A DNA stretch of 64,000 nucleotides, taken from Nitrosopumilus sp. (GTDB taxonomy: Archaea; Thermoproteota; Nitrososphaeria; Nitrososphaerales; Nitrosopumilaceae). The notes under the pieces are model-generated. The model made no database searches. It was not told the DNA's origin and worked only from the letters and a program-made list of their open reading frames with translations. Of this stretch, positions 11,999-64,000 are shown in pieces. The position numbers and the translations under genes are program-made. Location of the stretch: the NCBI GenBank assembly GCA_965197525.1, contig OZ240211.1, positions 416,001 through 480,000 on the forward strand, written 5' to 3'. Numbering within the stretch: the stretch's first letter is position 1; each line of letters opens with the position of its first letter.

Positions 11999-12041
11999 AG
12001 TTACAGTAATGTACTTCATGTATTTATCAATTAATTATATC

Positions 12042-13347
12042 GGTTCTGTGAAGTTATAGAGACCTTATTTATGAGGATAGGCGTACATAAATGCCCCAAA
12101 ATCATAGAATATTGGTTGAAGGCAATAAAGTCAATAGCACAAAAATATACGCCAAACTCTGACCTAATGGATATGATGGCCACATTCACAGAAATGGTTA
12201 ACCGTTGCATCAAGATAGGGTTAAAAGAAGACACACACAATATGAAAAGGCTATCATGTCTATGCTATCACGAATTGAGAGACTATGACATTTTATCGTC
12301 ATACAAACTAAATGCAATATCAAGGGCTACTGGCATATTGGCAAACAGAAGACAGTCAATAAAACGTGGTGTCAAGGTTAGATACCCAAAGGTAACAAAG
12401 CCGTTTATCACTAATTGTTACGGTATAAAACACAATGGTGCGCTACTCACAATCCCATACAAGAGTAGAAATTCAATCAACATCTTGTTAAACCCGCATA
12501 CCCAAAAAATCCTGTCGAATCCTGACTTGACAGTACGCTCGTTTTCATTGACTGCCTTTAGCATCAATCTTTGCGTTTCCAAGGAGACTGAACAGATAGA
12601 ATGTACCAAGACGGTAGGAATCGATAGAAATTTGAGGAATGTTACATGTGGCAATGAGGAGCAAGTAACATTTTACAAGACAAACAAACTGCTATCCATA
12701 AAAGAGAACACCATGCACGCCAGAGCCGGATTCCACAGAAATGATCGCAGAAAGAAAGGTCAATTCTGGAAGATAAAACAGCGAAGAATGGCCAATAGAA
12801 CAAAACAATACATACACAGAATATCAAAAGATATTGTGGATAATGCCGTCAAAGAAAAGGCTGTAATCGTTCTAGAAAACCTAAAAGGAATTAGAAAACT
12901 CTACAAAAAAGGAAATGGCCAAGGCAACAAATACAGGCGCAGATTAAACGGATGGCAATTCTACGAGTTACAACGCCAAATAGAATACAAAGCCCAATGG
13001 GTCGGGCTCCCGCCAGTCGAATATGTAGACCCAAAAAACACGAGCACGCAGTGTCCAAGATGCGGAAAGAAACTCCAAGAGGACATGCAACACAGACGTA
13101 AAATGTCGTGTAATAATTGTGGATTGTACACGGACAGAGACATTGTAGCTGCCATGAACATATCACGCAAACCGTCCCCTAGGTTTAGGGATAGCAGAGA
13201 TGACATAGGTGAAGCGCAGTCCGGTGTTTTTGAACCGGCGATGATGGAACCCTGCATACCGGTAATCCAGATAGTCGATATGTCAAAGTCGAGTGATAGG
13301 AGGATATAACTTGTTAAATCAACAGGTACCTATAACTTTACAGAACC
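12042..13347 (+). mobile_element. TIR-bounded tnpB element, copy 1 (1306 bp)
   Basis: Left GGTTCTGTGAAGTTATAG versus right end reverse-complemented GGTTCTGTAAAGTTATAG (17/18). Flanks ATTATATC and AAAATAAA are not duplicated. Confidence 0.85.
12116..13309 (+). CDS. tnpB: TnpB RNA-guided endonuclease (copy 1)
   Basis: RuvC-I VGIDRNL, RuvC-II VLENL, Zn ribbon CPRC...CNNC, RuvC-III DRDIVAAMNI. TTG start at 12116 aligns with the MKAIKSI start of copy 2. Confidence 0.93.
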   Translation: MKAIKSIAQKYTPNSDLMDMMATFTEMVNRCIKIGLKEDTHNMKRLSCLCYHELRDYDILSSYKLNAISRATGILANRRQSIKRGVKVRYPKVTKPFITNCYGIKHNGALLTIPYKSRNSINILLNPHTQKILSNPDLTVRSFSLTAFSINLCVSKETEQIECTKTVGIDRNLRNVTCGNEEQVTFYKTNKLLSIKENTMHARAGFHRNDRRKKGQFWKIKQRRMANRTKQYIHRISKDIVDNAVKEKAVIVLENLKGIRKLYKKGNGQGNKYRRRLNGWQFYELQRQIEYKAQWVGLPPVEYVDPKNTSTQCPRCGKKLQEDMQHRRKMSCNNCGLYTDRDIVAAMNISRKPSPRFRDSRDDIGEAQSGVFEPAMMEPCIPVIQIVDMSKSSDRRI

Positions 13348-13419
13348 AAAATAAATAAATGGCTATAATTTGTAAATTATTGATAATCATTAAAAAATAT
13401 TGTAACTAATTCAAGAAAT

Positions 13420-19254: not shown

Positions 19255-19719
19255 TCACGTATCCTCAATCAGCACCTTGAGATTCTCAAGTGAGTGTTTG
19301 TAAAAGGATTTCAAAGACGCGTAAAAATCACAGAATTCAACGGAAGTCATGGAGTGGCTATTAAAATAGGACTGCCATTGTAGTCTCACCGTATTACCAG
19401 ACAAGGGTCTAATGGATAATGTTGCAACATATGCTCGTAATGGCAGTCCATGCGTTGCAACATATGTAAAAGATTCATCGCTATTCCATGCAACAACATG
19501 CTCTTCAACAATATTACCATCTGCAAATGATATCAGCCGTACTGCCCCAATACCGCGTGTCTTCTTTGAGATACATGTAACCTTAGTTACACCATCTGCC
19601 CAAGCTGCCAATCCCATAACATTGCTAATATGTTGCCAAACCTGCTCTTGTGATGCATTGATTTTGATAGTTTGTTTAAGCATGTCGGTATGAAATGATT
19701 TTTTTGGTTTACGAGTCAC
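19255..19719 (-). CDS. SRPBCC/polyketide cyclase-family protein
   Basis: INASQEQVWQHISN...W...GIGAVR...EEHVVAWN...FTY fits the START-like fold. Confidence 0.85.
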   Translation of the reverse strand: MTRKPKKSFHTDMLKQTIKINASQEQVWQHISNVMGLAAWADGVTKVTCISKKTRGIGAVRLISFADGNIVEEHVVAWNSDESFTYVATHGLPLRAYVATLSIRPLSGNTVRLQWQSYFNSHSMTSVEFCDFYASLKSFYKHSLENLKVLIEDT

Positions 19720-19726
19720 AATATTA

Positions 19727-21014
19727 GGTTCTGTGAAGTTATCGGGAGTTAACCCCTATAACTCGACTTTGACATATCGACTATTCGGATTACCAATGGT
19801 GTGCTGGGTTCCGTCATCGCCTGCTCAAAAGTGCCGGACTGTGCTTCACATATGTCATCTCTACTGCCCCTAAACCTAGGGGGCAGTTTGCGTGATATGT
19901 TCATGGCAGCGATGATGTCCCTGTCCATAAACAAACCGCAATTATTACACGACAATTTACGATGTTGTTGCATGTCCTCTTGGAGTCTCTTTCCGCATTG
20001 CGGACACTGCGTGCTCGTGTTTCTTGGGTCTACTGTCTCGACTGGAGGTAGTCCGACCCATTGGGCTTTGTATTCTACTTGGCGTTGTAACTCGTAGAAT
20101 TGCCACCCGTTCAATCTACGTCTGTACTTGTTACCTTGAGTGTTTCCTTTTCGGTACAATTTTCTTATTCCTTTCAGGTTTTCCATGACGATTGCAGTCT
20201 TGTTTTTGACTGCGTTGTCTACTATATCCTTTGAGATTCTGTGGATGTACTGCTTTGCTCTGTTAGTCAGTCTTCTCTGTTTTTCCTTGTAGAACTGATT
20301 TTTCTTCCTGCGGTCATTTCTGTGGAAGCCTGCCCTGGCGTGTATTGTGTTCTCCTTTATGGATAACAGTTTGTTTGTCTTGTAGACTGTCACCTCTTCC
20401 TCGTTCCCGCACGTCACATTTCTTAGGTTTCTGTCTATTCCCACTTGATTGGTGCACTCTATCTCTTGTACTTTTTTTGAAACACAAAGACTGATGTTGA
20501 GAGCAGTCAATGAAAACGAGTGCACCGTCAAGGCGGGATCAGATAGGATTTTTTGGGTGTGATCGTTGAGCAAAATGCTGATTGGGTTATGTTTCTTGTA
20601 TGGGATTGTTAGTAGTGCACCGTTGTGTTTTATGCCGTAACAGTTTGTCATAAAGGGATTTTTGAGTATTGGGTCTCTTATTCTGACACCTCGTTTGATT
20701 GATTGTTTTCTGTTTGATAATATGCCTGCAGCTCTTGATATTGCACATATCTTGTATGTTGATAAAATGCCATAGTTACGTAATTCATGATAACATAACA
20801 TGGACAACCTCTTCATATTGTGAGTGTCTTCTTTCAACCCTATCTTGATGCAATGATTGACCATCTTTGTGAATATAGCCATCATATCCATTAGATCAGA
20901 GTTTTGCGCATATTTCTGTGATATTGACTTTATCGCTTTCAACGAATATCTTACGGTTTAGAGGTTTATACATTTTAGGAATTGACATATAACTCCCGAT
21001 AACTTCACAGAACC
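19727..21014 (-). mobile_element. TIR-bounded tnpB element, copy 2 (1288 bp), with 8-bp TSD
   Basis: Perfect 25-bp TIR GGTTCTGTGAAGTTATCGGGAGTTA at 19727-19751 and, reverse-complemented, at 20990-21014. CAATATTA at 19719-19726 and 21015-21022. Confidence 0.95.
19749..20942 (-). CDS. tnpB: TnpB RNA-guided endonuclease (copy 2, intact)
   Basis: VGIDRNL, VMENL, CPQC...CNNC and DRDIIAAMNI. 397 aa. Confidence 0.94.
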   Translation of the reverse strand: MKAIKSISQKYAQNSDLMDMMAIFTKMVNHCIKIGLKEDTHNMKRLSMLCYHELRNYGILSTYKICAISRAAGILSNRKQSIKRGVRIRDPILKNPFMTNCYGIKHNGALLTIPYKKHNPISILLNDHTQKILSDPALTVHSFSLTALNISLCVSKKVQEIECTNQVGIDRNLRNVTCGNEEEVTVYKTNKLLSIKENTIHARAGFHRNDRRKKNQFYKEKQRRLTNRAKQYIHRISKDIVDNAVKNKTAIVMENLKGIRKLYRKGNTQGNKYRRRLNGWQFYELQRQVEYKAQWVGLPPVETVDPRNTSTQCPQCGKRLQEDMQQHRKLSCNNCGLFMDRDIIAAMNISRKLPPRFRGSRDDICEAQSGTFEQAMTEPSTPLVIRIVDMSKSSYRG

Positions 21015-21365
21015 CAATATTACAAAAAATGAGAGGAATTTTAAATTTTATTCTAGTAAAAACAAGGATATTTTACGTTTATTCGTTTACCGTTGTGCTT
21101 GGTTCTTGAATCACAATACATCAAAAACAGAATCACAGTTTAACATAAAAAAAAGTGCCATAGCAGTCAGAATTCATACATGTGCTACTTGTCTTCCATC
21201 GTGCGTTGCCTGAGAGCGAAGATCAACAAAAGAGACAAAACTGAAATTTGTAATTTATGATTTATCAAACTGCTGTACCTAGTATCAACCTGTGTTCTCA
21301 GAGTCAGGCATAACATCGCACTAGACAAAAACAACTATTTTTAATCCCTAATAACAAATAGCAGT

Positions 21366-26917: not shown

Positions 26918-29900
26918 CTATGTGTTGTCAGTATTGACAGTATACGTATGGTCTACTCCAGTGGTGGCAGTATCAGTTAGAGGATTATCTGCAGAATCCT
27001 CGATGCCGTGGTTTTGTACAAGATCAAGGTTGTATGTCCCGTCACTTGATGCAGAGACTGTCACAAAGTACTGGCTGCCAGAACCGGATATGGAGGTTAC
27101 AGGACTGGGAACATCGGTGGTATCACCATAATTAATTGTGAGTGTCCAGCTGTTCAGAACGCCATAATCTTCATAGAGATAGTTATCGTTGATCTTCAGC
27201 GTCCATGTTCCCGATATTGAGGTGCCGTTAAAATTTGGTGTGTATGTAGCTACTATGTCGTCTGAACTACCACCTGAACGGTTGTGTAACGTTTTGGTTG
27301 TACCGTCGGGGGCAACCAAATCTACCTTTAGATCACCAATGTATGTATGAGTAATGTTTAGGTTAACTGAAACTGATGTAACATTTCCAGAATTAGACAC
27401 TGCTATAGTATCAATAATGTCTTGATTACCTGCTATGATAGTTGATGGTGATTCGGTCTGAGTGAACTGGCCAGTACCAGTACCCGGGTCAGAGCCACCC
27501 GTGCTATCAGAAGACAGGACAAAGTCAGACTGGGTTACACCGGTCACTGCCTCACTAAAGGTTACCTCGTAGACTAGTGTCTGGCTGTCAGTAGTTGCAG
27601 CAACAGGATTGTATCTCTCAATTGATGTGAGTGTTGGTGCTGTGGTATCAGCAGGTACCGTGTTGACAGTATATGTCTGGTCTACTCCAGTGGTGGCAGT
27701 ATCAGTTAGAGGATTATCTGCAGAATCCTCGATGCCGTGGTTTTGTACAAGATCAAGGTTGTATGTCCCGTCACTTGATGCAGAGACCGTCACAAAGTAC
27801 TGGCTGCCAGAACCGGATATGGAGGTTACAGGATTAGCAGCACCCGTGCTATCAGAAGACAGGACAAATTCAGACTGGGTTACACCGGTCACTGCCTCAC
27901 TAAAGGTTACCTCGTAGACTAGTGTCTGGCTGTCAGTAGTTGCAGCAACAGGATTGTATCTCTCAATTGATGTGAGTGTTGGTGCTGTGGTATCAGCAGG
28001 TACCGTGTTGACCGTGTAGGTGTGGTCTACTCCAGTGGTGGCAGTATCAGTTAGAGGATTATCTGCAGAATCCTCGATGCCGTGGTTTTGTACAAGATCA
28101 AGGTTGTATGTCCCGTCACTTGATGCAGAGACCGTCACAAAGTACTGGCTGCCAGAACCGGATATGGAGGTTACAGGATTAGCAGCACCCGTGCTATCAG
28201 AAGACAGGACAAAGTCAGACTGGGTTACACCGGTCACTGCCTCACTAAAGGTTACCTCGTAGACTAGTGTCTGGCTGTCAGTAGTTGCAGCAACAGGATT
28301 GTATCTCTCAATTGATGTGAGTGTTGGTGCTGTGGTATCAGCAGGTACCGTGTTGACAGTATATGTCTGGTCTACTCCAGTGGTGGCAGTATCAGTTAGA
28401 GGATTATCTGCAGAATCCTCGATGCCGTGGTTTTGTACAAGATCAAGGTTGTATGTCCCGTCACTTGATGCAGAGACTGTCACAAAGTACTGGCTGCCAG
28501 AACCGGATATGGAGGTTACAGGACTGGGAACATCGGTGGTATCACCATAATTAATTGTGAGTGTCCAGCTGTTCAGAACGCCGTCATCTGCAGATGGAAA
28601 ATTGTCGTTGATCTTCAGCGTCCATGTTCCCGATATTGAGGTGCCGTTAAAATTTGGTGTGTATGTAGCAACTATGTCGTCTGAACTACCACCTGAACTG
28701 TTGTGTAACGTTTTGGTTGTACCGTCGGGGGCAACCAAATCTACCTTTAGATCACCAATGTATGTATGAGTAATGTTTAGGTTAACTGAAACTGATGTAA
28801 CATTTCCAGAATTAGACACTGCTATAGTATCAATAATGTCTTGATTACCTGCTATGATAGTTGATGGTGATTCGGTCTGAGTGAACTGGCCAGTACCAGT
28901 ACCCGGGTCAGAGCCACCCGTGCTATCAGAAGACAGGACAAAGTCAGACTGGGTTACACCGGTCACTGCCTCACTAAAGGTTACCTCGTAGACTAGTGTC
29001 TGGCTGTCAGTAGTTGCAGCAACAGGATTGTATCTCTCAATTGATGTGAGTGTTGGTGCTGTGGTATCAGCAGGTACCGTGTTGACAGTATATGTCTGGT
29101 CTACTCCAGTGGTGGCAGTATCAGTTAGAGGATTATCTGCAGAATCCTCGATGCCGTGGTTTTGTACAAGATCAAGGTTGTATGTCCCGTCACTTGATGC
29201 AGAGACCGTCACAAAGTACTGGCTGCCAGAACCGGATATGGAGGTTACAGGACTGGGAACATCGGTGGTATCACCATAATTAATTGTGAGTGTCCAGCTG
29301 TTCAGAACGCCGTCATCTGCAGATGGAAAATTGTCGTTGATCTTCAGCGTCCATGTTCCCGATATTGAGGTGCCGTTAAAATTTGGTGTGTATGTAGCAA
29401 CTATGTCGTCTGAACTACCACCTGAACTGTTGTGTAACGTTTTGGTTGTACCGTCGGGGGCAACCAAATCTACCTTTAGATCACCAATGTATGTATGAGT
29501 AATGTTTAGGTTAACTGAAACTGATGTAACATTTCCAGAATTAGACACTGCTATAGTATCAATAATGTCTTGATTACCTGCTATGATAGTTGATGGTGAT
29601 TCGGTCTGAGTGAACTGGCCAGTACCAGTACCCGGGTCAGAGCCACCCGTGCTATCAGAAGACAGGACAAAGTCAGACTGGGTTACACCGGTCACTGCCT
29701 CACTAAAGGTTACCTCGTAGACTAGTGTCTGGCTGTCAGTAGTTGCAGCAGCAGCAGGATTGTATCTCTCAATTGATGTGAGTGTTGGTGCTGTGGTATC
29801 AGCAGGTACCGTGTTGACAGTATATGTCTGGTCTACTCCAGTGGTGGCAGTATCAGTTAGAGGATTATCTGCAGAATCCTCGATGCCGTGGTTTTGTACA

Positions 29901-32900
29901 AGATCAAGGTTGTATGTCCCGTCACTTGATGCAGAGACCGTCACAAAGTACTGGCTGCCAGAACCGGATATGGAGGTTACAGGATTAGCAGCACCCGTGC
30001 TATCAGAAGACAGGACAAAGTCAGACTGGGTTACACCGGTCACTGCCTCACTAAAGGTTACCTCGTAGACTAGTGTCTGGCTGTCAGTAGTTGCAGCAAC
30101 AGGATTGTATCTCTCAATTGATGTGAGTGTTGGTGCTGTGGTATCAGCAGGTACCGTGTTGACCGTGTAGGTGTGGTCTACTCCAGTGGTGGCAGTATCA
30201 GTTAGAGGATTATCTGCAGAATCCTCGATGCCGTGGTTTTGTACAAGATCAAGGTTGTATGTCCCGTCACTTGATGCAGAGACTGTCACAAAGTACTGGC
30301 TGCCAGAACCGGATATGGAGGTTATAGGATTGTGGATGTCAGTGGGATCACCATGATTAATTGTGAGTGTCCAGCTGTTCAGAACGCCGTCATCTGCAGA
30401 CGGATAGTCGTCGTTGATCTTCAGCGTCCATGTTCCCGATATTGAGGTGCCATTAAAGCTTGGTGTGTATGTAGCTACTATGTCGTCTGAACTACCACCT
30501 GAACGGTTGTGTAACGTTTTGGTTGTACCGTCGGGGGCAACCAAATCTACCTTTAGATCACCAATGTATGTATGAGTAATGTTTAGGTTAACTGAAACTG
30601 ATGTAACATTTCCAGAATTAGACACTGCTATAGTATCAGTAACATCTTGAGCACCTGTTATGGCAGTTGATGGTGAGTTGGTCTGAGTGAACTGGCCAGT
30701 ATCTGTGTCAGGACCGCCCGTGCTATCAGAAGACAGGACAAAGTCAGACTGGGTTACACCGGTCACTGCCTCACTAAAGGTTACCTCGTAGACTAGTGTC
30801 TGGCTGTCAGTAGTTGCAGCAGCAGCAGGATTGTATCTCTCAATTGATGTGAGTGTTGGTGCTGTGGTATCAGCAGGTACCGTGTTGACAGTATATGTCT
30901 GGTCTACTCCAGTGGTGGCAGTATCAGTTAGAGGATTATCTGCAGAATCCTCGATGCCGTGGTTTTGTACAAGATCAAGGTTGTATGTCCCGTCACTTGA
31001 TGCAGAGACCGTCACAAAGTACTGGCTGCCAGAACCGGATATGGAGGTTACAGGATTAGCAGCACCCGTGCTATCAGAAGACAGGACAAAGTCAGACTGG
31101 GTTACACCGGTCACTGCCTCACTAAAGGTTACCTCGTAGACTAGTGTCTGGCTGTCAGTAGTTGCAGCAACAGGATTGTATCTCTCAATTGATGTGAGTG
31201 TTGGTGCTGTGGTATCAGCAGGTACCGTGTTGACAGTATATGTCTGGTCTACTCCAGTGGTGGCAGTATCAGTTAGAGGATTATCTGCAGAATCCTCGAT
31301 GCCGTGGTTTTGTACAAGATCAAGGTTGTATGTCCCGTCACTTGATGCAGAGACCGTCACAAAGTACTGGCTGCCAGAACCGGATATGGAGGTTACAGGA
31401 CTGGGAACATCGGTGGTATCACCATAATTAATTGTGAGTGTCCAGCTGTTCAGAACGCCGTCATCTGCAGATGGAAAATTGTCGTTGATCTTCAGCGTCC
31501 ATGTTCCCGATATTGAGGTGCCGTTAAAATTTGGTGTGTATGTAGCAACTATGTCGTCTGAACTACCACCTGAACTGTTGTGTAACGTTTTGGTTGTACC
31601 GTCGGGGGCAACCAAATCTACCTTTAGATCACCAATGTATGTATGAGTAATGTTTAGGTTAACTGAAACTGATGTAACATTTCCAGAATTAGACACTGCT
31701 ATAGTATCAATAATGTCTTGATTACCTGCTATGATAGTTGATGGTGATTCGGTCTGAGTGAACTGGCCAGTACCAGTACCCGGGTCAGAGCCACCCGTGC
31801 TATCAGAAGACAGGACAAAGTCAGACTGGGTTACACCGGTCACTGCCTCACTAAAGGTTACCTCGTAGACTAGTGTCTGGCTGTCAGTAGTTGCAGCAGC
31901 AGCAGGATTGTATCTCTCAATTGATGTGAGTGTTGGTGCTGTGGTATCAGCAGGTACCGTGTTGACCGTGTAGGTGTGGTCTACTCCAGTGGTGGCAGTA
32001 TCAGTTAGAGGATTATCTGCAGAATCCTCGATGCCGTGGTTTTGTACAAGATCAAGGTTGTATGTCCCGTCACTTGATGCAGAGACCGTCACAAAGTACT
32101 GGCTGCCAGAACCGGATATGGAGGTTACAGGACTGGGAACATCGGTGGTATCACCATAATTAATTGTGAGTGTCCAGCTGTTCAGAACGCCGTCATCTGC
32201 AGATGGAAAATTGTCGTTGATCTTCAGCGTCCATGTTCCCGATATTGAGGTGCCGTTAAAATTTGGTGTGTATGTAGCAACTATGTCGTCTGAACTACCA
32301 CCTGAACTGTTGTGTAACGTTTTGGTTGTACCGTCGGGGGCAACCAAATCTACCTTTAGATCACCAATGTATGTATGAGTAATGTTTAGGTTAACTGAAA
32401 CTGATGTAACATTTCCAGAATTAGACACTGCTATAGTATCAATAATGTCTTGATTACCTGCTATGATAGTTGATGGTGATTCGGTCTGAGTGAACTGGCC
32501 AGTACCAGTACCCGGGTCAGAGCCACCCGTGCTATCAGAAGACAGGACAAAGTCAGACTGGGTTACACCGGTCACTGCCTCACTAAAGGTTACCTCGTAG
32601 ACTAGTGTCTGGCTGTCAGTAGTTGCAGCAGCAGCAGGATTGTATCTCTCAATTGATGTGAGTGTTGGTGCTGTGGTATCAGCAGGTACCGTGTTGACCG
32701 TGTAGGTGTGGTCTACTCCAGTGGTGGCAGTATCAGTTAGAGGATTATCTGCAGAATCCTCGATGCCGTGGTTTTGTACAAGATCAAGGTTGTATGTCCC
32801 GTCACTTGATGCAGAGACCGTCACAAAGTACTGGCTGCCAGAACCGGATATGGAGGTTACAGGATTAGCAGCACCCGTGCTATCAGAAGACAGGACAAAG

Positions 32901-35900
32901 TCAGACTGGGTTACACCGGTCACTGCCTCACTAAAGGTTACCTCGTAGACTAGTGTCTGGCTGTCAGTAGTTGCAGCAACAGGATTGTATCTCTCAATTG
33001 ATGTGAGTGTTGGTGCTGTGGTATCAGCAGGTACCGTGTTGACCGTGTAGGTGTGGTCTACTCCAGTGGTGGCAGTATCAGTTAGAGGATTATCTGCAGA
33101 ATCCTCGATGCCGTGGTTTTGTACAAGATCAAGGTTGTATGTCCCGTCACTTGATGCAGAGACTGTCACAAAGTACTGGCTGCCAGAACCGGATATGGAG
33201 GTTATAGGATTGTGGATGTCAGTGGGATCACCATGATTAATTGTGAGTGTCCAGCTGTTCAGAACGCCGTCATCTGCAGACGGATAGTCGTCGTTGATCT
33301 TCAGCGTCCATGTTCCCGATATTGAGGTGCCATTAAAGCTTGGTGTGTATGTAGCTACTATGTCGTCTGAACTACCACCTGAACGGTTGTGTAACGTTTT
33401 GGTTGTACCGTCGGGGGCAACCAAATCTACCTTTAGATCACTAATGTATGTATGAGTAATGTTTAGGTTAACTGAAACTGATGTAACATTTCCAGAATTA
33501 GACACTGCTATAGTATCAGTAACATCTTGAGCACCTGTTATGGCAGTTGATGGTGAGTTGGTCTGAGTGAACTGGCCAGTATCTGTGTCAGGACCGCCCG
33601 TGCTATCAGAAGACAGGACAAAGTCAGACTGGGTTACACCGGTCACTGCCTCACTAAAGGTTACCTCGTAGACTAGTGTCTGGCTGTCAGTAGTTGCAGC
33701 AGCAGCAGGATTGTATCTCTCAATTGATGTGAGTGTTGGTGCTGTGGTATCAGCAGGTACCGTGTTGACAGTATATGTCTGGTCTACTCCAGTGGTGGCA
33801 GTATCAGTTAGAGGATTATCTGCAGAATCCTCGATGCCGTGGTTTTGTACAAGATCAAGGTTGTATGTCCCGTCACTTGATGCAGAGACCGTCACAAAGT
33901 ACTGGCTGCCAGAACCGGATATGGAGGTTACAGGACTGGGAACATCGGTGGTATCACCATAATTAATTGTGAGTGTCCAGCTGTTCAGAACGCCGTCATC
34001 TGCAGATGGAAAATTGTCGTTGATCTTCAGCGTCCATGTTCCCGATATTGAGGTGCCGTTAAAATTTGGTGTGTATGTAGCAACTATGTCGTCTGAACTA
34101 CCACCTGAACTGTTGTGTAACGTTTTGGTTGTACCGTCGGGGGCAACCAAATCTACCTTTAGATCACCAATGTATGTATGAGTAATGTTTAGGTTAACTG
34201 AAACTGATGTAACATTTCCAGAATTAGACACTGCTATAGTATCAATAATGTCTTGATTACCTGCTATGATAGTTGATGGTGATTCGGTCTGAGTGAACTG
34301 GCCAGTACCAGTACCCGGGTCAGAGCCACCCGTGCTATCAGAAGACAGGACAAAGTCAGACTGGGTTACACCGGTCACTGCCTCACTAAAGGTTACCTCG
34401 TAGACTAGTGTCTGGCTGTCAGTAGTTGCAGCAGCAGCAGGATTGTATCTCTCAATTGATGTGAGTGTTGGTGCTGTGGTATCAGCAGGTACCGTGTTGA
34501 CCGTGTAGGTGTGGTCTACTCCAGTGGTGGCAGTATCAGTTAGAGGATTATCTGCAGAATCCTCGATGCCGTGGTTTTGTACAAGATCAAGGTTGTATGT
34601 CCCGTCACTTGATGCAGAGACCGTCACAAAGTACTGGCTGCCAGAACCGGATATGGAGGTTACAGGATTAGCAGCACCCGTGCTATCAGAAGACAGGACA
34701 AAGTCAGACTGGGTTACACCGGTCACTGCCTCACTAAAGGTTACCTCGTAGACTAGTGTCTGGCTGTCAGTAGTTGCAGCAACAGGATTGTATCTCTCAA
34801 TTGATGTGAGTGTTGGTGCTGTGGTATCAGCAGGTACCGTGTTGACAGTATATGTCTGGTCTACTCCAGTGGTGGCAGTATCAGTTAGAGGATTATCTGC
34901 AGAATCCTCGATGCCGTGGTTTTGTACAAGATCAAGGTTGTATGTCCCGTCACTTGATGCAGAGACTGTCACAAAGTACTGGCTGCCAGAACCGGATATG
35001 GAGGTTACAGGATTAGCAGCACCCGTGCTATCAGAAGACAGGACAAAGTCAGACTGGGTTACACCGGTCACTGCCTCACTAAAGGTTACCTCGTAGACTA
35101 GTGTCTGGCTGTCAGTAGTTGCAGCAGCAGCAGGATTGTATCTCTCAATTGATGTGAGTGTTGGTGCTGTGTTGTCTAACGCGGTATTTACAATGTATGT
35201 TTGATCTGTCCCTGTTGGGATGATGTTGGTTAACAGATGGTTTCCGGTATCTTTGATGCCACTGTTAGACACTAGATCCAAATTATATGTGCCATCACCT
35301 GATGCAGAGACCGTCACAAAGTACTGGCTGCCAGAACCGGATATGGATGTAATAGAGTTGTTGTCGCTGTTAGCATTATTAGAATATATTGTAAGCGTCC
35401 AGTTATGTAGAACGCCGCCGTTGTATGAATTTCCATCGTGGTCACGGATATTTAGTGTCCAATTTCCTGAAATGTCGGTGCCTCTAAAGTTTGGGGTGTA
35501 TGTTTGATAGATCTCTCCTGCAGAGTTGCCTGAACGGCTATGTAATGTTCTGGTCGTGCCGTCAGGAGCAATCAGATCTACAGCTAGTTGACCAACATAC
35601 GGATGGGTAATATCCACTGCAACTGAAACTGACGAGACAGTTTTAGGGCTAAACATTGAGATCGTGTCCGTGATTGGAAGATACGATGGTATCTCAATCA
35701 GGTCTGAATTGGTCTGTGTAAATGGCCCAACACCACCAGTACTGCTAGAAGACAGAGTAAAATCAGACAGGTTCACATTTGTCACTGCCTTATTGAATTT
35801 CACCTTGTAGACTAGTGTTTGGCTATCGGTAATTTCTGTTGTGGGATTGTGTCTTGTAATAGAGGTAATAGTAGGTGCTTCGGCAGTTGATTTGACACTA

Positions 35901-37351
35901 ACGTAAATGGAACGAGAGGGATCTACATTAAGAGAAAGAGAACCCACACTTGTGGTGTTGGCAGTTATTGTTATGGAATATCCTGATTTGGAGGAATAAT
36001 TAGAGGTGGATGTGAGGAAGAGTTGTCCATGTCTTATTGTAAAAGCGTCAGCGTCTGTACCTGTAATAGAGTAGTTGTCAATATCAGCATCAAATCCAAC
36101 TGATGTGTATATGTCGGTGACAAGTGTTTCGCCATTACCAATGGATGTATCATTCAAGTTAATAAACCAAGATCTCTGATTATGGTTAAAGGAAGAAGCG
36201 TTACCAAACATGTCATTCATGTAAGTTACAGAGGAGACATTCCAAGTGGATAGATTGCTGTTAAAAGAGGTTGCATAACTAAACATTCTACTCATGTCAG
36301 TCACAGAGGAGACATTCCAGGTGGATAGATTGCTGTTAAAAGAGGTTGCATCAATGAACATTCCATACATGTTAGTCACATTGGAGACGTCCCATCTAGA
36401 GATGTCACTGTTAAAGACCTGAGCCGACTGAAACATCTGGGTCATACGTTTCACATTGGAGACATCCCATCTAGAGATGTCACTGTTAAAGTTGTCTGCA
36501 CTAGAAAACATATACGTCATGTCAGTTACAGAGGAGACATTCCAGTTGGATAGATTGCCGGTAAATGATGGTGTCTTGTAGAACATGTAACGTAGATTAG
36601 TCATCAAGGAGACATCCCAATTGGATAGATCTCCATTAAAGGCGTTGGCTTCATAGAACATACTGTGTACAGATTTTGGTGGGTAGGTGAGATCAGGTAC
36701 ATCGGTTGCCCGGTACTGCATATTGACTGCGCCTTTGAACATATCTCGCATGTTAGTCCATTTAGTATCTCCCCATTGATCTATCGATAAGAGTAATTGC
36801 GGAGAACCATCGACAGTAAAAACACCAACATAATCAAAATAGAAGCGCTCTAAATCGCCAGAGATGATAATAGTGGCACTTTTATCTGTAGTAGGATCGG
36901 AGTTTCGGTAAAAGTGAGATACTCGTCCAGATTCGTCATAGATGCTTGTAGAACCACGATCATCACCCCAATCTATTGTTACCTGACCACCGGCTGCCAC
37001 GTCAATATTAAATGCAACATTAGCGTAATTGTTATTATTACTGACAGGTTCTCCAGTAACATCCCATGTGGTAACAAAGACAGTAGAGTTGTATGTTTGC
37101 GCATACACATGCGGTAACAATATTGAATATGGTACTTGATCTACCAGATCAGCCCAAACATGATCAGTTAGAATGTAGGTCAAAGGATACAAGTTGTTTG
37201 CACCTACCTCCCAGACTTCATCATAAAATGCCACACATAGTCCAAACACCAGCATCGCGTTCAGCAGGATGATGATGCTTATAGTAATCGGACTACGTGA
37301 TTTGAATTTGCCACCAACATCACAATGTGCGTAGCAAGAAAAAACAGGCAA
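26918..37351 (-). CDS. Giant surface protein (3477 aa): N-terminal TM/signal, BspA/DUF285 repeats, cadherin-like domain, then Ig-like and proprotein-convertase P-domain repeats
   Basis: WDVSNVTNMxxMF repeats, DADAFTI cadherin-like segment, and ITHTYIGDLKVDLVAPDGT...GTWTL P-domain motif, all in one uninterrupted ORF. Confidence 0.9.
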   Translation of the reverse strand: MPVFSCYAHCDVGGKFKSRSPITISIIILLNAMLVFGLCVAFYDEVWEVGANNLYPLTYILTDHVWADLVDQVPYSILLPHVYAQTYNSTVFVTTWDVTGEPVSNNNNYANVAFNIDVAAGGQVTIDWGDDRGSTSIYDESGRVSHFYRNSDPTTDKSATIIISGDLERFYFDYVGVFTVDGSPQLLLSIDQWGDTKWTNMRDMFKGAVNMQYRATDVPDLTYPPKSVHSMFYEANAFNGDLSNWDVSLMTNLRYMFYKTPSFTGNLSNWNVSSVTDMTYMFSSADNFNSDISRWDVSNVKRMTQMFQSAQVFNSDISRWDVSNVTNMYGMFIDATSFNSNLSTWNVSSVTDMSRMFSYATSFNSNLSTWNVSSVTYMNDMFGNASSFNHNQRSWFINLNDTSIGNGETLVTDIYTSVGFDADIDNYSITGTDADAFTIRHGQLFLTSTSNYSSKSGYSITITANTTSVGSLSLNVDPSRSIYVSVKSTAEAPTITSITRHNPTTEITDSQTLVYKVKFNKAVTNVNLSDFTLSSSSTGGVGPFTQTNSDLIEIPSYLPITDTISMFSPKTVSSVSVAVDITHPYVGQLAVDLIAPDGTTRTLHSRSGNSAGEIYQTYTPNFRGTDISGNWTLNIRDHDGNSYNGGVLHNWTLTIYSNNANSDNNSITSISGSGSQYFVTVSASGDGTYNLDLVSNSGIKDTGNHLLTNIIPTGTDQTYIVNTALDNTAPTLTSIERYNPAAAATTDSQTLVYEVTFSEAVTGVTQSDFVLSSDSTGAANPVTSISGSGSQYFVTVSASSDGTYNLDLVQNHGIEDSADNPLTDTATTGVDQTYTVNTVPADTTAPTLTSIERYNPVAATTDSQTLVYEVTFSEAVTGVTQSDFVLSSDSTGAANPVTSISGSGSQYFVTVSASSDGTYNLDLVQNHGIEDSADNPLTDTATTGVDHTYTVNTVPADTTAPTLTSIERYNPAAAATTDSQTLVYEVTFSEAVTGVTQSDFVLSSDSTGGSDPGTGTGQFTQTESPSTIIAGNQDIIDTIAVSNSGNVTSVSVNLNITHTYIGDLKVDLVAPDGTTKTLHNSSGGSSDDIVATYTPNFNGTSISGTWTLKINDNFPSADDGVLNSWTLTINYGDTTDVPSPVTSISGSGSQYFVTVSASSDGTYNLDLVQNHGIEDSADNPLTDTATTGVDQTYTVNTVPADTTAPTLTSIERYNPAAAATTDSQTLVYEVTFSEAVTGVTQSDFVLSSDSTGGPDTDTGQFTQTNSPSTAITGAQDVTDTIAVSNSGNVTSVSVNLNITHTYISDLKVDLVAPDGTTKTLHNRSGGSSDDIVATYTPSFNGTSISGTWTLKINDDYPSADDGVLNSWTLTINHGDPTDIHNPITSISGSGSQYFVTVSASSDGTYNLDLVQNHGIEDSADNPLTDTATTGVDHTYTVNTVPADTTAPTLTSIERYNPVAATTDSQTLVYEVTFSEAVTGVTQSDFVLSSDSTGAANPVTSISGSGSQYFVTVSASSDGTYNLDLVQNHGIEDSADNPLTDTATTGVDHTYTVNTVPADTTAPTLTSIERYNPAAAATTDSQTLVYEVTFSEAVTGVTQSDFVLSSDSTGGSDPGTGTGQFTQTESPSTIIAGNQDIIDTIAVSNSGNVTSVSVNLNITHTYIGDLKVDLVAPDGTTKTLHNSSGGSSDDIVATYTPNFNGTSISGTWTLKINDNFPSADDGVLNSWTLTINYGDTTDVPSPVTSISGSGSQYFVTVSASSDGTYNLDLVQNHGIEDSADNPLTDTATTGVDHTYTVNTVPADTTAPTLTSIERYNPAAAATTDSQTLVYEVTFSEAVTGVTQSDFVLSSDSTGGSDPGTGTGQFTQTESPSTIIAGNQDIIDTIAVSNSGNVTSVSVNLNITHTYIGDLKVDLVAPDGTTKTLHNSSGGSSDDIVATYTPNFNGTSISGTWTLKINDNFPSADDGVLNSWTLTINYGDTTDVPSPVTSISGSGSQYFVTVSASSDGTYNLDLVQNHGIEDSADNPLTDTATTGVDQTYTVNTVPADTTAPTLTSIERYNPVAATTDSQTLVYEVTFSEAVTGVTQSDFVLSSDSTGAANPVTSISGSGSQYFVTVSASSDGTYNLDLVQNHGIEDSADNPLTDTATTGVDQTYTVNTVPADTTAPTLTSIERYNPAAAATTDSQTLVYEVTFSEAVTGVTQSDFVLSSDSTGGPDTDTGQFTQTNSPSTAITGAQDVTDTIAVSNSGNVTSVSVNLNITHTYIGDLKVDLVAPDGTTKTLHNRSGGSSDDIVATYTPSFNGTSISGTWTLKINDDYPSADDGVLNSWTLTINHGDPTDIHNPITSISGSGSQYFVTVSASSDGTYNLDLVQNHGIEDSADNPLTDTATTGVDHTYTVNTVPADTTAPTLTSIERYNPVAATTDSQTLVYEVTFSEAVTGVTQSDFVLSSDSTGAANPVTSISGSGSQYFVTVSASSDGTYNLDLVQNHGIEDSADNPLTDTATTGVDQTYTVNTVPADTTAPTLTSIERYNPAAAATTDSQTLVYEVTFSEAVTGVTQSDFVLSSDSTGGSDPGTGTGQFTQTESPSTIIAGNQDIIDTIAVSNSGNVTSVSVNLNITHTYIGDLKVDLVAPDGTTKTLHNSSGGSSDDIVATYTPNFNGTSISGTWTLKINDNFPSADDGVLNSWTLTINYGDTTDVPSPVTSISGSGSQYFVTVSASSDGTYNLDLVQNHGIEDSADNPLTDTATTGVDQTYTVNTVPADTTAPTLTSIERYNPVAATTDSQTLVYEVTFSEAVTGVTQSDFVLSSDSTGGSDPGTGTGQFTQTESPSTIIAGNQDIIDTIAVSNSGNVTSVSVNLNITHTYIGDLKVDLVAPDGTTKTLHNSSGGSSDDIVATYTPNFNGTSISGTWTLKINDNFPSADDGVLNSWTLTINYGDTTDVPSPVTSISGSGSQYFVTVSASSDGTYNLDLVQNHGIEDSADNPLTDTATTGVDQTYTVNTVPADTTAPTLTSIERYNPVAATTDSQTLVYEVTFSEAVTGVTQSDFVLSSDSTGAANPVTSISGSGSQYFVTVSASSDGTYNLDLVQNHGIEDSADNPLTDTATTGVDHTYTVNTVPADTTAPTLTSIERYNPVAATTDSQTLVYEVTFSEAVTGVTQSEFVLSSDSTGAANPVTSISGSGSQYFVTVSASSDGTYNLDLVQNHGIEDSADNPLTDTATTGVDQTYTVNTVPADTTAPTLTSIERYNPVAATTDSQTLVYEVTFSEAVTGVTQSDFVLSSDSTGGSDPGTGTGQFTQTESPSTIIAGNQDIIDTIAVSNSGNVTSVSVNLNITHTYIGDLKVDLVAPDGTTKTLHNRSGGSSDDIVATYTPNFNGTSISGTWTLKINDNYLYEDYGVLNSWTLTINYGDTTDVPSPVTSISGSGSQYFVTVSASSDGTYNLDLVQNHGIEDSADNPLTDTATTGVDHTYTVNTDNT
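26927..35183 (-). repeat. Intragenic array of 15 near-identical modules: 7 short (345-348 bp) and 8 long (726-732 bp)
   Basis: The boundary GGTACCGTGTTGAC recurs at these spacings. Order from the N-terminus is S,S,L,L,S,L,L,S,L,S,L,L,S,S,L. Confidence 0.9.
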
Positions 37352-37618: not shown

Positions 37619-38402
37619 AATTCTGTGAAGTTATCGAAGGATCTAACATATTAACTCAAAAATCAATTTCTTTTTTTATATAAAGTTAACAAGTCAAGCC
37701 TCGACTAGTTAACATTGACATATCAACTATCCAGATTACCGGTCTGTAGGGTTCCGACATTGCTAACTCAAAAGTGTTAGTCTGCGCTTCACTTATGCCA
37801 CCTCTGCTATTCCTAAACCTAGGGGACAGCTTGCATGATATATTTATGGGAGCTACAACATCTCTATCCATCATAAATAATCCGCAATTATTGCACGACA
37901 TTTTACGTCTGTGTTGCATGTCCTCTTGGAGTTTCTTTCCGCATTGCAGACATTGTGTGCTCGTGTTTTTTGGGTCTACATATCTTACCGGCGGGAACCC
38001 GGCCCATTGGGCTTTGTATTCTATTTGGCGTTGTAACTCAAAGAATTGCCATCCGTTCATTCTACGTCTGTATTTGTTGCCTTGACCATTTTCTTTTTTG
38101 TAGAGTTTTCTTATTCCTTTTAGGTTTTCTAAAACGATGACAGTTTTTTCTTCGACGGTAGTATCCACAATATCATCTGTTATTTTGTGCAGATATTGTT
38201 TTGTTCTATTATTCATTCTTCTCTGTTTTTCTTTATAGAACTCACCTTTCTTTCTACGGTTATTTCTAGGGAATCCAGCTCTAGCATGTATTGTGTTCTC
38301 TGATAGATAACATCTTGTTTGTCTTGTAAAATGTCATTTTTATTTCATTTCCACAAGTTACATTTCTAAGGTTTCTGTCTATCCCTACTACATTGGTACA
38401 CT
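37619..38402 (-). pseudogene. tnpB: tnpB element copy 3: 5'-truncated, frameshifted tnpB with an eroded TIR
   Basis: AATTCTGTGAAGTTATCG at 37619. ORF 37686-38216 keeps RuvC-II and RuvC-III. CTNVVGIDRNL near 38370-38400 lies in another frame (shift near 38305). The 5' portion (about 160 codons) is absent. Confidence 0.88.
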
Positions 38403-62903: not shown

Positions 62904-63386
62904 ATTGATTATATGATATCCAATAGATATTGTGTAATAACGATCGGAATTGAATAAGATTGACAAATGTATCAAAAATAAAATAGGTTTACACACATAC
63001 ATATAAAATAAAAGGACAGTGATACCAGTATTACACACTTATTCTTGGTCTAAGATTTATCTAGTAAGCTTTTATAATTTATACGTTAGATCATATCAGC
63101 CCAACAGTATCTCCAAAGACTGATCTTACATACATCCTCCACATAAATACAAACATAGTATATGGCGAAACATCTGAACCATGTTCTCTGATCACATTTG
63201 ATCTGTGCACTTGTCGTATAGAACACCAAGACGTATAGAAGCGTTTATTCTGGTACATCATTAATCGGATCACACTAGTATATTCTAAGAATGTAAACAA
63301 GTTGAAAATATACTATTCCAAACATAGCAAAAGCTTATGCAAGCATCATCTAGTATGTACCCGTATCGTTCAAACGTTGTTGATAG

Positions 63387-64000
63387 GGTTCTGTGAAGTT
63401 ATCGAGGGTTAACCCCTATAACTCGACTTTGACATATCGACTATTCGGATTACCAATGGTGTGCCGGGTTCCGTCATCGCCTGCTCAAGAGTGCCGGACT
63501 GCGCTTCATATATGTCATCTCTACTACCCCTAAACCTAGGGGGCAGCTTGCGTGATATGTTCATGGCAGCGATAATATCCCTGTCCATAAACAAACCGCA
63601 ATTATTACACGACATTTTACGATGTTGTTGCATGTCCTCTTGGAGTCTCTTTCCGCATTGCAGACACTGCGTGCTCGTGTTTCTTGGGTCTACTGTCTCG
63701 ACTGGAGGCAGCCCTACCCATTGGGCTTTGTATTCTATTTGGCGTTGTAACTCGTAGAATTGCCACCCGTTCAATCTACGCCTGTACTTGTTACCTTGAC
63801 TGTTTCCTTTTCGGTACAATTTTCTTATTCCTTTCAGGTTTTCCATGACGATTGCAGTCTTGTTTTTGACTGCGTTGTCTACTATATCCTTTGAGATTCT
63901 GTGGATGTACTGCTTTGTTCTATTGCTCATTCGTCTCTGTCTTTGTTTCCAGAATTGACCTTTCTTTCTGCGATCATTTCTGTGGAATCCTGCCCTAGCG
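63387..64000 (-). mobile_element. tnpB: TIR-bounded tnpB element copy 4 (3' part; continues beyond the window)
   Basis: GGTTCTGTGAAGTTATCGAGGGTTAA at 63387. The tnpB frame is open from the window end to the stop at 63409 and is closely similar to copy 2. Confidence 0.9.

Follow-up and report, generated by a model that had tools for sequence, protein, structure and literature searches.

Where does the guide of an omegaRNA come from when tnpB lies in a transposon that ends in inverted repeats? We know of no account of how a TnpB gains a useful guide inside an inverted-repeat transposon with a variable target duplication; surveys assume "related mechanisms". The question is raised by a 64,000-nucleotide stretch of a Nitrosopumilus sp. 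genome (contig OZ240211.1, positions 416,001 to 480,000 of the forward strand; hereafter the window), which carries several copies of such an element. An earlier note on this DNA had placed the guide either in a fixed sequence encoded by the element or, if the RNA reads through the repeat, in the flank that begins with the target duplication.

Four copies of one tnpB element in the window

The four copies have 22-25-bp terminal inverted repeats starting GGTTCTGT (GGTTCTGTGAAGTTAT... at 12042/13347, 19727/21014, 37619 and 63387), hold tnpB as their sole gene and lack a transposase.

12042-13347 (+): copy 1, a whole non-autonomous element of 1306 bp (repeat, tnpB, omegaRNA, repeat)
12116-13309 (+): tnpB of copy 1, 397 aa, with a TTG start that is conserved across subfamilies
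13325-13347 (+): right terminal inverted repeat of copy 1, from repeat comparison and folding
19727-21014 (-): copy 2, a 1288-bp element with an intact tnpB at 19749-20942
about 37619-38400 (-): copy 3, decayed and 5'-truncated, retaining aa 195-397 only
63387-64000 (-): copy 4, a 1288-bp element of which the window includes only the 3' part

The earlier note had described a conserved 3' region with the hairpin CCCCTA-GGTT-TAGGG in all four copies, and this hairpin does occur four times in the window (13176, 19868, 37811 and 63528) against 0.02 expected. The rest of its description is also accurate: the conserved region runs to GATATGTCAA and then AGTCGAG in every copy, the stretch that follows is variable (copy 1 has TGATAGGAGG, copies 2 and 4 have TTATAGGGGTTAAC, and copy 3 has an additional TGTTAACT), and the TnpB C-termini part ways where this stretch begins. 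In copy 3, TGTTAACT is inserted behind TCAA and the right repeat is degenerate (AATTCTGT).

The ends of copy 1 agree at 21/24 positions, and no intact target duplication was found when one was looked for there. On a 13.4-kb contig from a run of a related organism (X5), position 12036 is joined to 13348, with 83 other nucleotides replacing copy 1. Copy 1 is therefore a polymorphic insertion, and one more complex than a simple integration, in line with its missing duplication. Two further features of the window were recorded. A 237-bp mini-element at 2569-2805, with GGTTCTGT-type ends and no intact duplication, is a decayed omegaRNA-only derivative (AATCCAAATAGTAGATATAACAGTCAAC...), and an open reading frame of 3477 aa at 26918-37351 (-) adjoins the decayed copy 3.

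The whole genome, a single contig of 2.21 Mb that is 99% complete, holds 51 occurrences of ATAGTCGATATGTCAA in a dozen subfamilies; AGTC always comes next, and all copies end ...ACAGAACC. Among them are 37 long copies and about 11 mini-elements of 208-655 bp that retain the 3' block, a 3' bias that is partly circular because the mini-elements were collected through the motif itself. The 3' tnpB block ending ...UAUGUCAAAGU is found in all four window copies, in about 50 copies across the genome and in relatives from five further genomes. Of the 51 copies of this genome, 50 have the 20 nt ATAGTCGATATGTCAAAGTC unchanged, though dS between subfamilies is about 0.9. A perfect 8-bp duplication flanks 26 of the 42 copies of this genome that have matching ends.

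TnpB looks active

The protein matches NF040570 (NCBIfam guided_TnpB) with scores of 122.5 and 133.9 bits, the latter for copy 1, passing the cut-off of 100, and PF07282 with 74 bits. tnpB is open in 32/37 long copies, and GIDRN, ENL, DRD and two CxxC motifs are kept in 31 of these 32; the E and the third D align with catalytic positions in solved Cas12f/TnpB structures. Between subfamilies, dN/dS is about 0.1 at a dS of about 0.9. From the intact motifs, the dN/dS and the profile score, TnpB looks active. The defining marks of TldR proteins are lost RuvC catalytic residues and a fixed guide directed at a promoter; here the catalytic motifs are intact, and we found no conserved internal guide or target.

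The elements are non-autonomous and IS6-like

Searches for Y1 TnpA (PF01797) across the 99%-complete genome returned zero matches, with positive controls. Elements of the IS200/IS605 type have neither inverted repeats nor a duplication, and both are present here; short inverted repeats with 8-bp target duplications are those of the IS6 family as defined (PMC7986276). The genome encodes DDE transposases with a SWIM zinc finger that match PF13610. One of them is carried by an autonomous 1970-bp element (genome 746475-748444, L078) which has an 8-bp duplication and shares the first 18 nt of its repeat with one tnpB subfamily. This transposase scores 42.1 against PF13610 (cut-off 27) and 102.8 against NF033587 (NCBIfam IS6), below the cut-off of 125. 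A partner carrying the repeat of the main subfamily was not found in this genome and exists in two others (G117 and G161). The partner transposase of about 378 aa has an N-terminal SWIM-like CxC...CxH motif and a zinc ribbon.

With no transposase of their own, no Y1 TnpA in the genome, and DDE transposases with related ends present, the tnpB elements are non-autonomous IS6-like elements that carry a TnpB module as cargo. The SWIM-zinc-finger DDE transposases (IS240/IS6 type, GGTTCTGT ends) would mobilize them in trans. The autonomous partners (L078, L085, L087, L088 and L107) measure 1970-2700 bp and contain extra non-coding DNA; typical IS6 members, at 700-890 bp, are much shorter.

The 3' block folds as an omegaRNA scaffold

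To examine the 3' block, we aligned 27 diverse copies from this genome, G004 and G021 (TnpB 61-65% identical), counted the pairs of one structure that we had specified, and compared them with shuffles and slid registers. The structure pairs in 95% of cells against 84.9% in shuffles and 29-39% in slid registers, 14 pairs change on both sides, and none of 500 shuffles reached the observed values.

13172-13194 (+): hairpin 1 (CCGUCCCCUA / UAGGGAUAG), 7/9 pairs changing on both sides, 95% of cells paired
13202-13207 with 13279-13284 (+): long-range helix GACAUA/UAUGUC, GAUACA/UGUAUC in relatives
13221-13238 (+): hairpin 2, enclosed by the long-range helix, 5/5 pairs changing on both sides
13285-13289 (+): AAAGU, the invariant scaffold end, in a possible pseudoknot with the hairpin-2 loop ACUUU

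In relatives, CCCC/GGG of hairpin 1 is replaced by GG/CC. The AAAGU-ACUUU pseudoknot is 92% paired and changes on one side only; it may form, being compatible with the covariation data. Because two hairpins and a long-range helix covary, we take the 3' block to be a real omegaRNA scaffold, in support of the omegaRNA reading in the earlier note. That note had also inferred that ...TCAA is the ancestral IS605 end. This does not agree with the conservation of AAAGU, which extends to a TnpB lineage of 33% identity, where AAGU is retained at the scaffold end. A search of the element against Rfam gave no family match and a single chance snoRNA hit.

The variable stretch is predicted to form a hairpin with the right repeat

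The distance from TCAA to the element end is 29 nt in G021 (AGTCGAG followed by a 22-nt repeat), 35 nt in a variant from G154, 42 nt in the main subfamily here and up to 106 nt in others. Folding of 25 tail variants, each with its first 8 nt blocked, predicted a single architecture for 19 of them, with a common closing position and AGAACC free: the bases from the G-U just behind ...CAAA onward pair with the inner repeat, starting at its seventh base from the element end and moving inward.

13288-13341 (+): tail hairpin of copy 1, the repeat-like strand (GUCGAGUGAUAGG...) with the inner right repeat (...CCUAUAACUUUAC), from folding and permutation
13342-13347 (+): AGAACC, the last 6 nt of the right repeat of copy 1, predicted to be unpaired

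The 5' strand matches the repeat of its own family: GUCAAGU/ACUUGAC, GUCGGGU/ACCCGAC, GUUAAC/GUUAAC and GUCAGGUCUUC/GAAGACUGGAC. Across 29 families, 148/232 cells of the tail are paired; the expectation from permuted repeat types is 129.5 +/- 4.9, and 0/5000 permutations reach 148, a test that relatedness inflates. Within the close lineage alone the covariation of the hairpin is weak, 63/2000 shuffles reaching the observed value. AGTC is conserved far beyond this genome. The pseudoknot AAAGU and the closing G-U pairs of the hairpin compete for shared bases. Runs of T in the tails were considered as terminators and dropped as uninformative, since the scaffold loop has T5 in some intact subfamilies.

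A one-sided W-T-R motif precedes the insertions

The elements were oriented by tnpB, and the motif was taken as the three nucleotides before the left 8-bp duplication. At the 26 perfect-duplication insertions in this genome, T stands at -10, R at -9 and W at -11, each in 26/26; among all 42 copies with matching ends, T is at -10 in 38. The right side of the insertions has no mirror motif. Independent insertions in five other genomes (G154, G146, G097, G021 and G004) have T and R in 12/12 and W in 11/12. In total, W-T-R precedes 37 of the 38 clean insertions in six genomes at a genome WTR frequency of 0.088 (P = 3e-38), and P is 9e-33 even against DNA of at least 70% AT.

12031-12033 (+): TAM-like W-T-R motif TTA of copy 1, in the flank ATTA attatatc, 8 nt upstream of the left repeat
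13348-13367 (+): right flank of copy 1, the likeliest guide template given read-through, as judged from the motif data
21015-21022 and 19719-19726 (-): 8-bp duplication TAATATTG on both flanks of copy 2, as the earlier note had read it
21023-21025 (-): TAM-like TTG of copy 2
19707-19726 (-): candidate guide template of copy 2
63379-63386 (-): right duplication CTATCAAC of copy 4 (E479429m), whose left side reads ATTG ctatcaac

As a control, the autonomous IS6-like elements with ends of this type and perfect duplications, only five in number, have W-T-R in 1/5 on one side and 0/5 on the other (Fisher 2e-4 and 6e-6). These elements are at chance for W-T-R, indicating that the transposase does not demand the motif. 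In other families of the order, a second TnpB lineage of 33% identity (L108, L111, L113, L133 and L136) occurs in elements that share this layout, with GGTTCTGT ends and 8-bp duplications; there, C-S-T-T-Y precedes 5/5 clean insertions in five genomes. L114 and L126, which belong to a third sublineage and have AAGG as the scaffold end, show ..GG. If the guide opens with the duplication, a TAM would be expected to look like this motif, which is one-sided, T-rich, specific to the TnpB lineage and placed immediately 5' of the sequence continuing beyond the right end. Orthologous empty sites were searched for in related genomes and none was found, the flanks being only 77-80% alike over about 70 nt.

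A guide drawn from the flank is the probable layout

In the layout that we consider probable, the 3' part of the omegaRNA gene, 13172-13347 in the window, has been rebuilt to lie within an IS6-like transposon end, and the guide comes from the flank. The core scaffold (hairpin 1, the long-range helix, hairpin 2 and perhaps the pseudoknot) would overlap the tnpB end and be followed by a hairpin that ranges from 23 to about 100 nt, made of the repeat-like 5' strand and the inner right repeat, leaving the last six bases, AGAACC, single-stranded. Transcription most likely passes through the repeat, and the guide would consist of the 8-bp target duplication followed by 8-12 nt of right flank. TnpB would then recognize the empty allele, 5'-W-T-R-[duplication + flank], and spare the occupied site, where the left end has only 8 nt of match and the right end is preceded by ACC. 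This reading fits best because W-T-R lies where the empty allele would need it, is not found beside the autonomous partners and is specific to the TnpB lineage.

The second placement in the earlier note thus gains a one-sided motif at the expected position, while the read-through and the guide are what we infer from sequence. The pairing of the variable stretch with the inner repeat, the conservation of AGTC and the W-T-R beside the left duplication had escaped that note. The range of the tail between TCAA and the end, 29-106 nt, speaks against read-through, and we know of no solved TnpB with such an insert between scaffold and guide. In contigs from four public runs, one of them a sponge metatranscriptome and the others without a recorded type, the 3' block is deeper than mid-tnpB; these contigs break at the repeat borders and may include DNA carry-over, which makes them uninformative on the RNA ends.

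How the motif came to lie beside the insertions bears on the function of such a guide. On the accepted view of the IS6 family (PMC7986276), its members move by copy-in and do not excise, so restorative homing has no obvious substrate. If the transposase does not choose W-T-R, 37/38 calls for very strong selection or for a role of TnpB in target choice. Possible routes are defence against replacement by the empty allele, drive in a recombining population, and TnpB-assisted target choice. A more general formulation, which we regard as rather doubtful, is that the tnpB and omegaRNA module makes a DDE transposon, whose transposase has no such preference, subject to the one-sided TAM of the nuclease, either by steering insertion to TAM sites or as a drive under which only TAM-flanked insertions persist; the inverted repeat would then have been co-opted as a stem of the guide RNA.

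It is unlikely that TnpB simply reads W-T-R and thereby biases insertion by the DDE transposase, with cleavage of the empty site secondary or absent. The motif sits at the left end whereas the RNA gene is at the right end, and we know of no contact between TnpB and a DDE transposase. What such steering would account for is that the 37/38 include about 18 near-identical recent copies, a figure hard to reach by later selection alone, and that the autonomous partners lack the motif; IS6-type elements are also not known to excise (PMC7986276).

Quite improbable is a reading in which the RNA guides nothing, the motif results from the transposase or from selection on expression, and the 3' block is a cis signal or terminator. 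The mini-elements of 208-497 bp do hold the 3' block without tnpB, and the tail hairpin includes the binding site of the transposase itself. However, tnpB is under strong purifying selection with its catalytic motifs intact, the covariation acts at the RNA level, a symmetric pair of repeats offers no basis for a one-sided motif, and the motif shifts with the TnpB lineage.

The first placement in the earlier note, a fixed element-encoded guide (AGTCRAG and the next bases, or the bases after AAAGU) against one conserved target, has become very improbable. It has in its favour that the transposable unit stops at the repeat, which makes the sequence right behind the scaffold internal, and that AGTC is conserved across genomes. 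But the candidate is not constant even in one young subfamily, where substitutions and 1-nt indels occur (TTATAGG, TT-TAGG, TTTATAGG), is wholly unlike between subfamilies, is predicted to be buried in the hairpin, base-paired with the repeat, and in relatives with the 29-nt tail consists mostly of repeat sequence (AGTCGAG plus repeat). The earlier note had seen no convincing target for it in the window, and this holds more widely: apart from a few partial hits of a size expected by chance, BLAST of the genome gave no match of at least 14 nt outside the elements, and scans of viral and metagenome contigs for exact patterns found neither the internal candidate nor the scaffold end. A fixed guide also leaves the one-sided W-T-R unexplained. 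Two variants were rejected as well: an IS605-type unit inserted in a mini-element, with a fixed guide hitting "empty" mini-elements, because the left side holds only the repeat, a promoter-like AT stretch and the start codon with no conserved left-end boundary, and an internal guide against the element's own repeat, because own-versus-other alignment scores were mixed and the repeat is preceded by TCT, not W-T-R.

Relation to known systems

The canonical IS200/IS605 TnpB-omegaRNA systems of the ISDra2 type resemble the present family in having an RNA-guided TnpB, a scaffold that overlaps the 3' end of the gene, and a T-rich 5' motif on the tnpB-upstream side. Here, by contrast, there is no Y1 TnpA in the genome, inverted repeats and 8-bp duplications replace the subterminal hairpins, a repeat-containing hairpin of 29-106 nt separates scaffold and flank, and the partner transposase does not choose the motif.

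A 2023 survey (Altae-Tran et al., PMC10691335) catalogued TnpBs that are associated with DDE transposases and have inverted repeats, as well as solo TnpBs that are mobilized in trans. By the main description in that survey, they are alike in that tnpB lies between inverted repeats, its 3' end is less than 250 bp from the transposon end, and a DDE transposase mobilizes the element in trans. The same description mentions no RNA structure across the repeat and no insertion-site motif, and it is on this description only that we set the present family apart from DDE-1 to DDE-6, with which overlap is possible. The DDE partners in the survey are given as ISL2, IS630 and IS1031, not IS6, by a 2026 review (PMC13565253).

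Guide RNAs of Fanzors overlap the inverted repeat, and the Fanzor TAM agrees with the insertion site in some cases (PMC10530073). The overlap with the repeat, a flank-derived guide, which for the present family is our inference, and a TAM tied to the insertion site are thus common to both (PMC10530073; PMC13565253). In Fanzors, a fixed 5' duplication (TA, TTAA) belongs to the TAM (PMC13565253), whereas here the 8-bp duplication is variable and would form the first 8 nt of the guide, with the motif outside it. The present family also differs in its prokaryotic host and the TnpB-like catalytic layout.

With the IS6/IS26 family, the elements share 8-bp target duplications, GGTTCTGT ends and a partner transposase matching PF13610. 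The GGTTCTGT string occurs in papers on staphylococcal insertion sequences, and the ends presumably resemble those of IS257-type elements. They differ in that the element contains no transposase and that the partner, of about 378 aa with the SWIM-like motif and zinc ribbon, falls below the NCBIfam IS6 cut-off. The 2021 review of the IS6 family (PMC7986276) lists just one member that carries a passenger gene, and none with TnpB as cargo.

The DDE/TnpB and Fanzor layouts are of an already known kind; new are the IS6-like partner, the repeat as a predicted RNA stem, a guide that would start in the variable duplication, and a putative TAM that is absent from the insertions of the partner. The family offers a testable layout of scaffold, repeat-containing hairpin, AGAACC and a guide that would open with the duplication, and its putative TAM can be read straight from about 40 natural insertions. 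The lack of this TAM beside the autonomous partner suggests an influence of the nuclease on which DDE-element insertions exist, and this bears on the first coupling of RNA-guided nucleases with transposases, as in CRISPR-associated transposons and Fanzor. A nuclease of about 397 aa with a 3-nt motif is also a candidate for a compact editing tool.

Signs of transfer and rearrangement

Elements in this genome and in G154 are 96-99% identical (L042, L048 and L052 against window 13140-13300; L139). Around copy 2, the chromosomal DNA of the two genomes agrees at only about 77% over 70 nt, which suggests recent transfer of the element between species. Two further elements of this genome, of 851 bp (883991-884841) and 835 bp (572469-573303), have GGTTCTGT-type ends and contain no transposase, tnpB or omegaRNA block; the 851-bp element has a perfect 8-bp duplication. 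In G154, two inverted copies (L064 and L065; G154:C1:1325084-1326699 and 1451298-1452913) have their flanks exchanged (tagaaact / ttatgtta), as is characteristic of an inversion, here of about 125 kb, that arose either by recombination between the copies or by intramolecular replicative transposition of the IS6 type.
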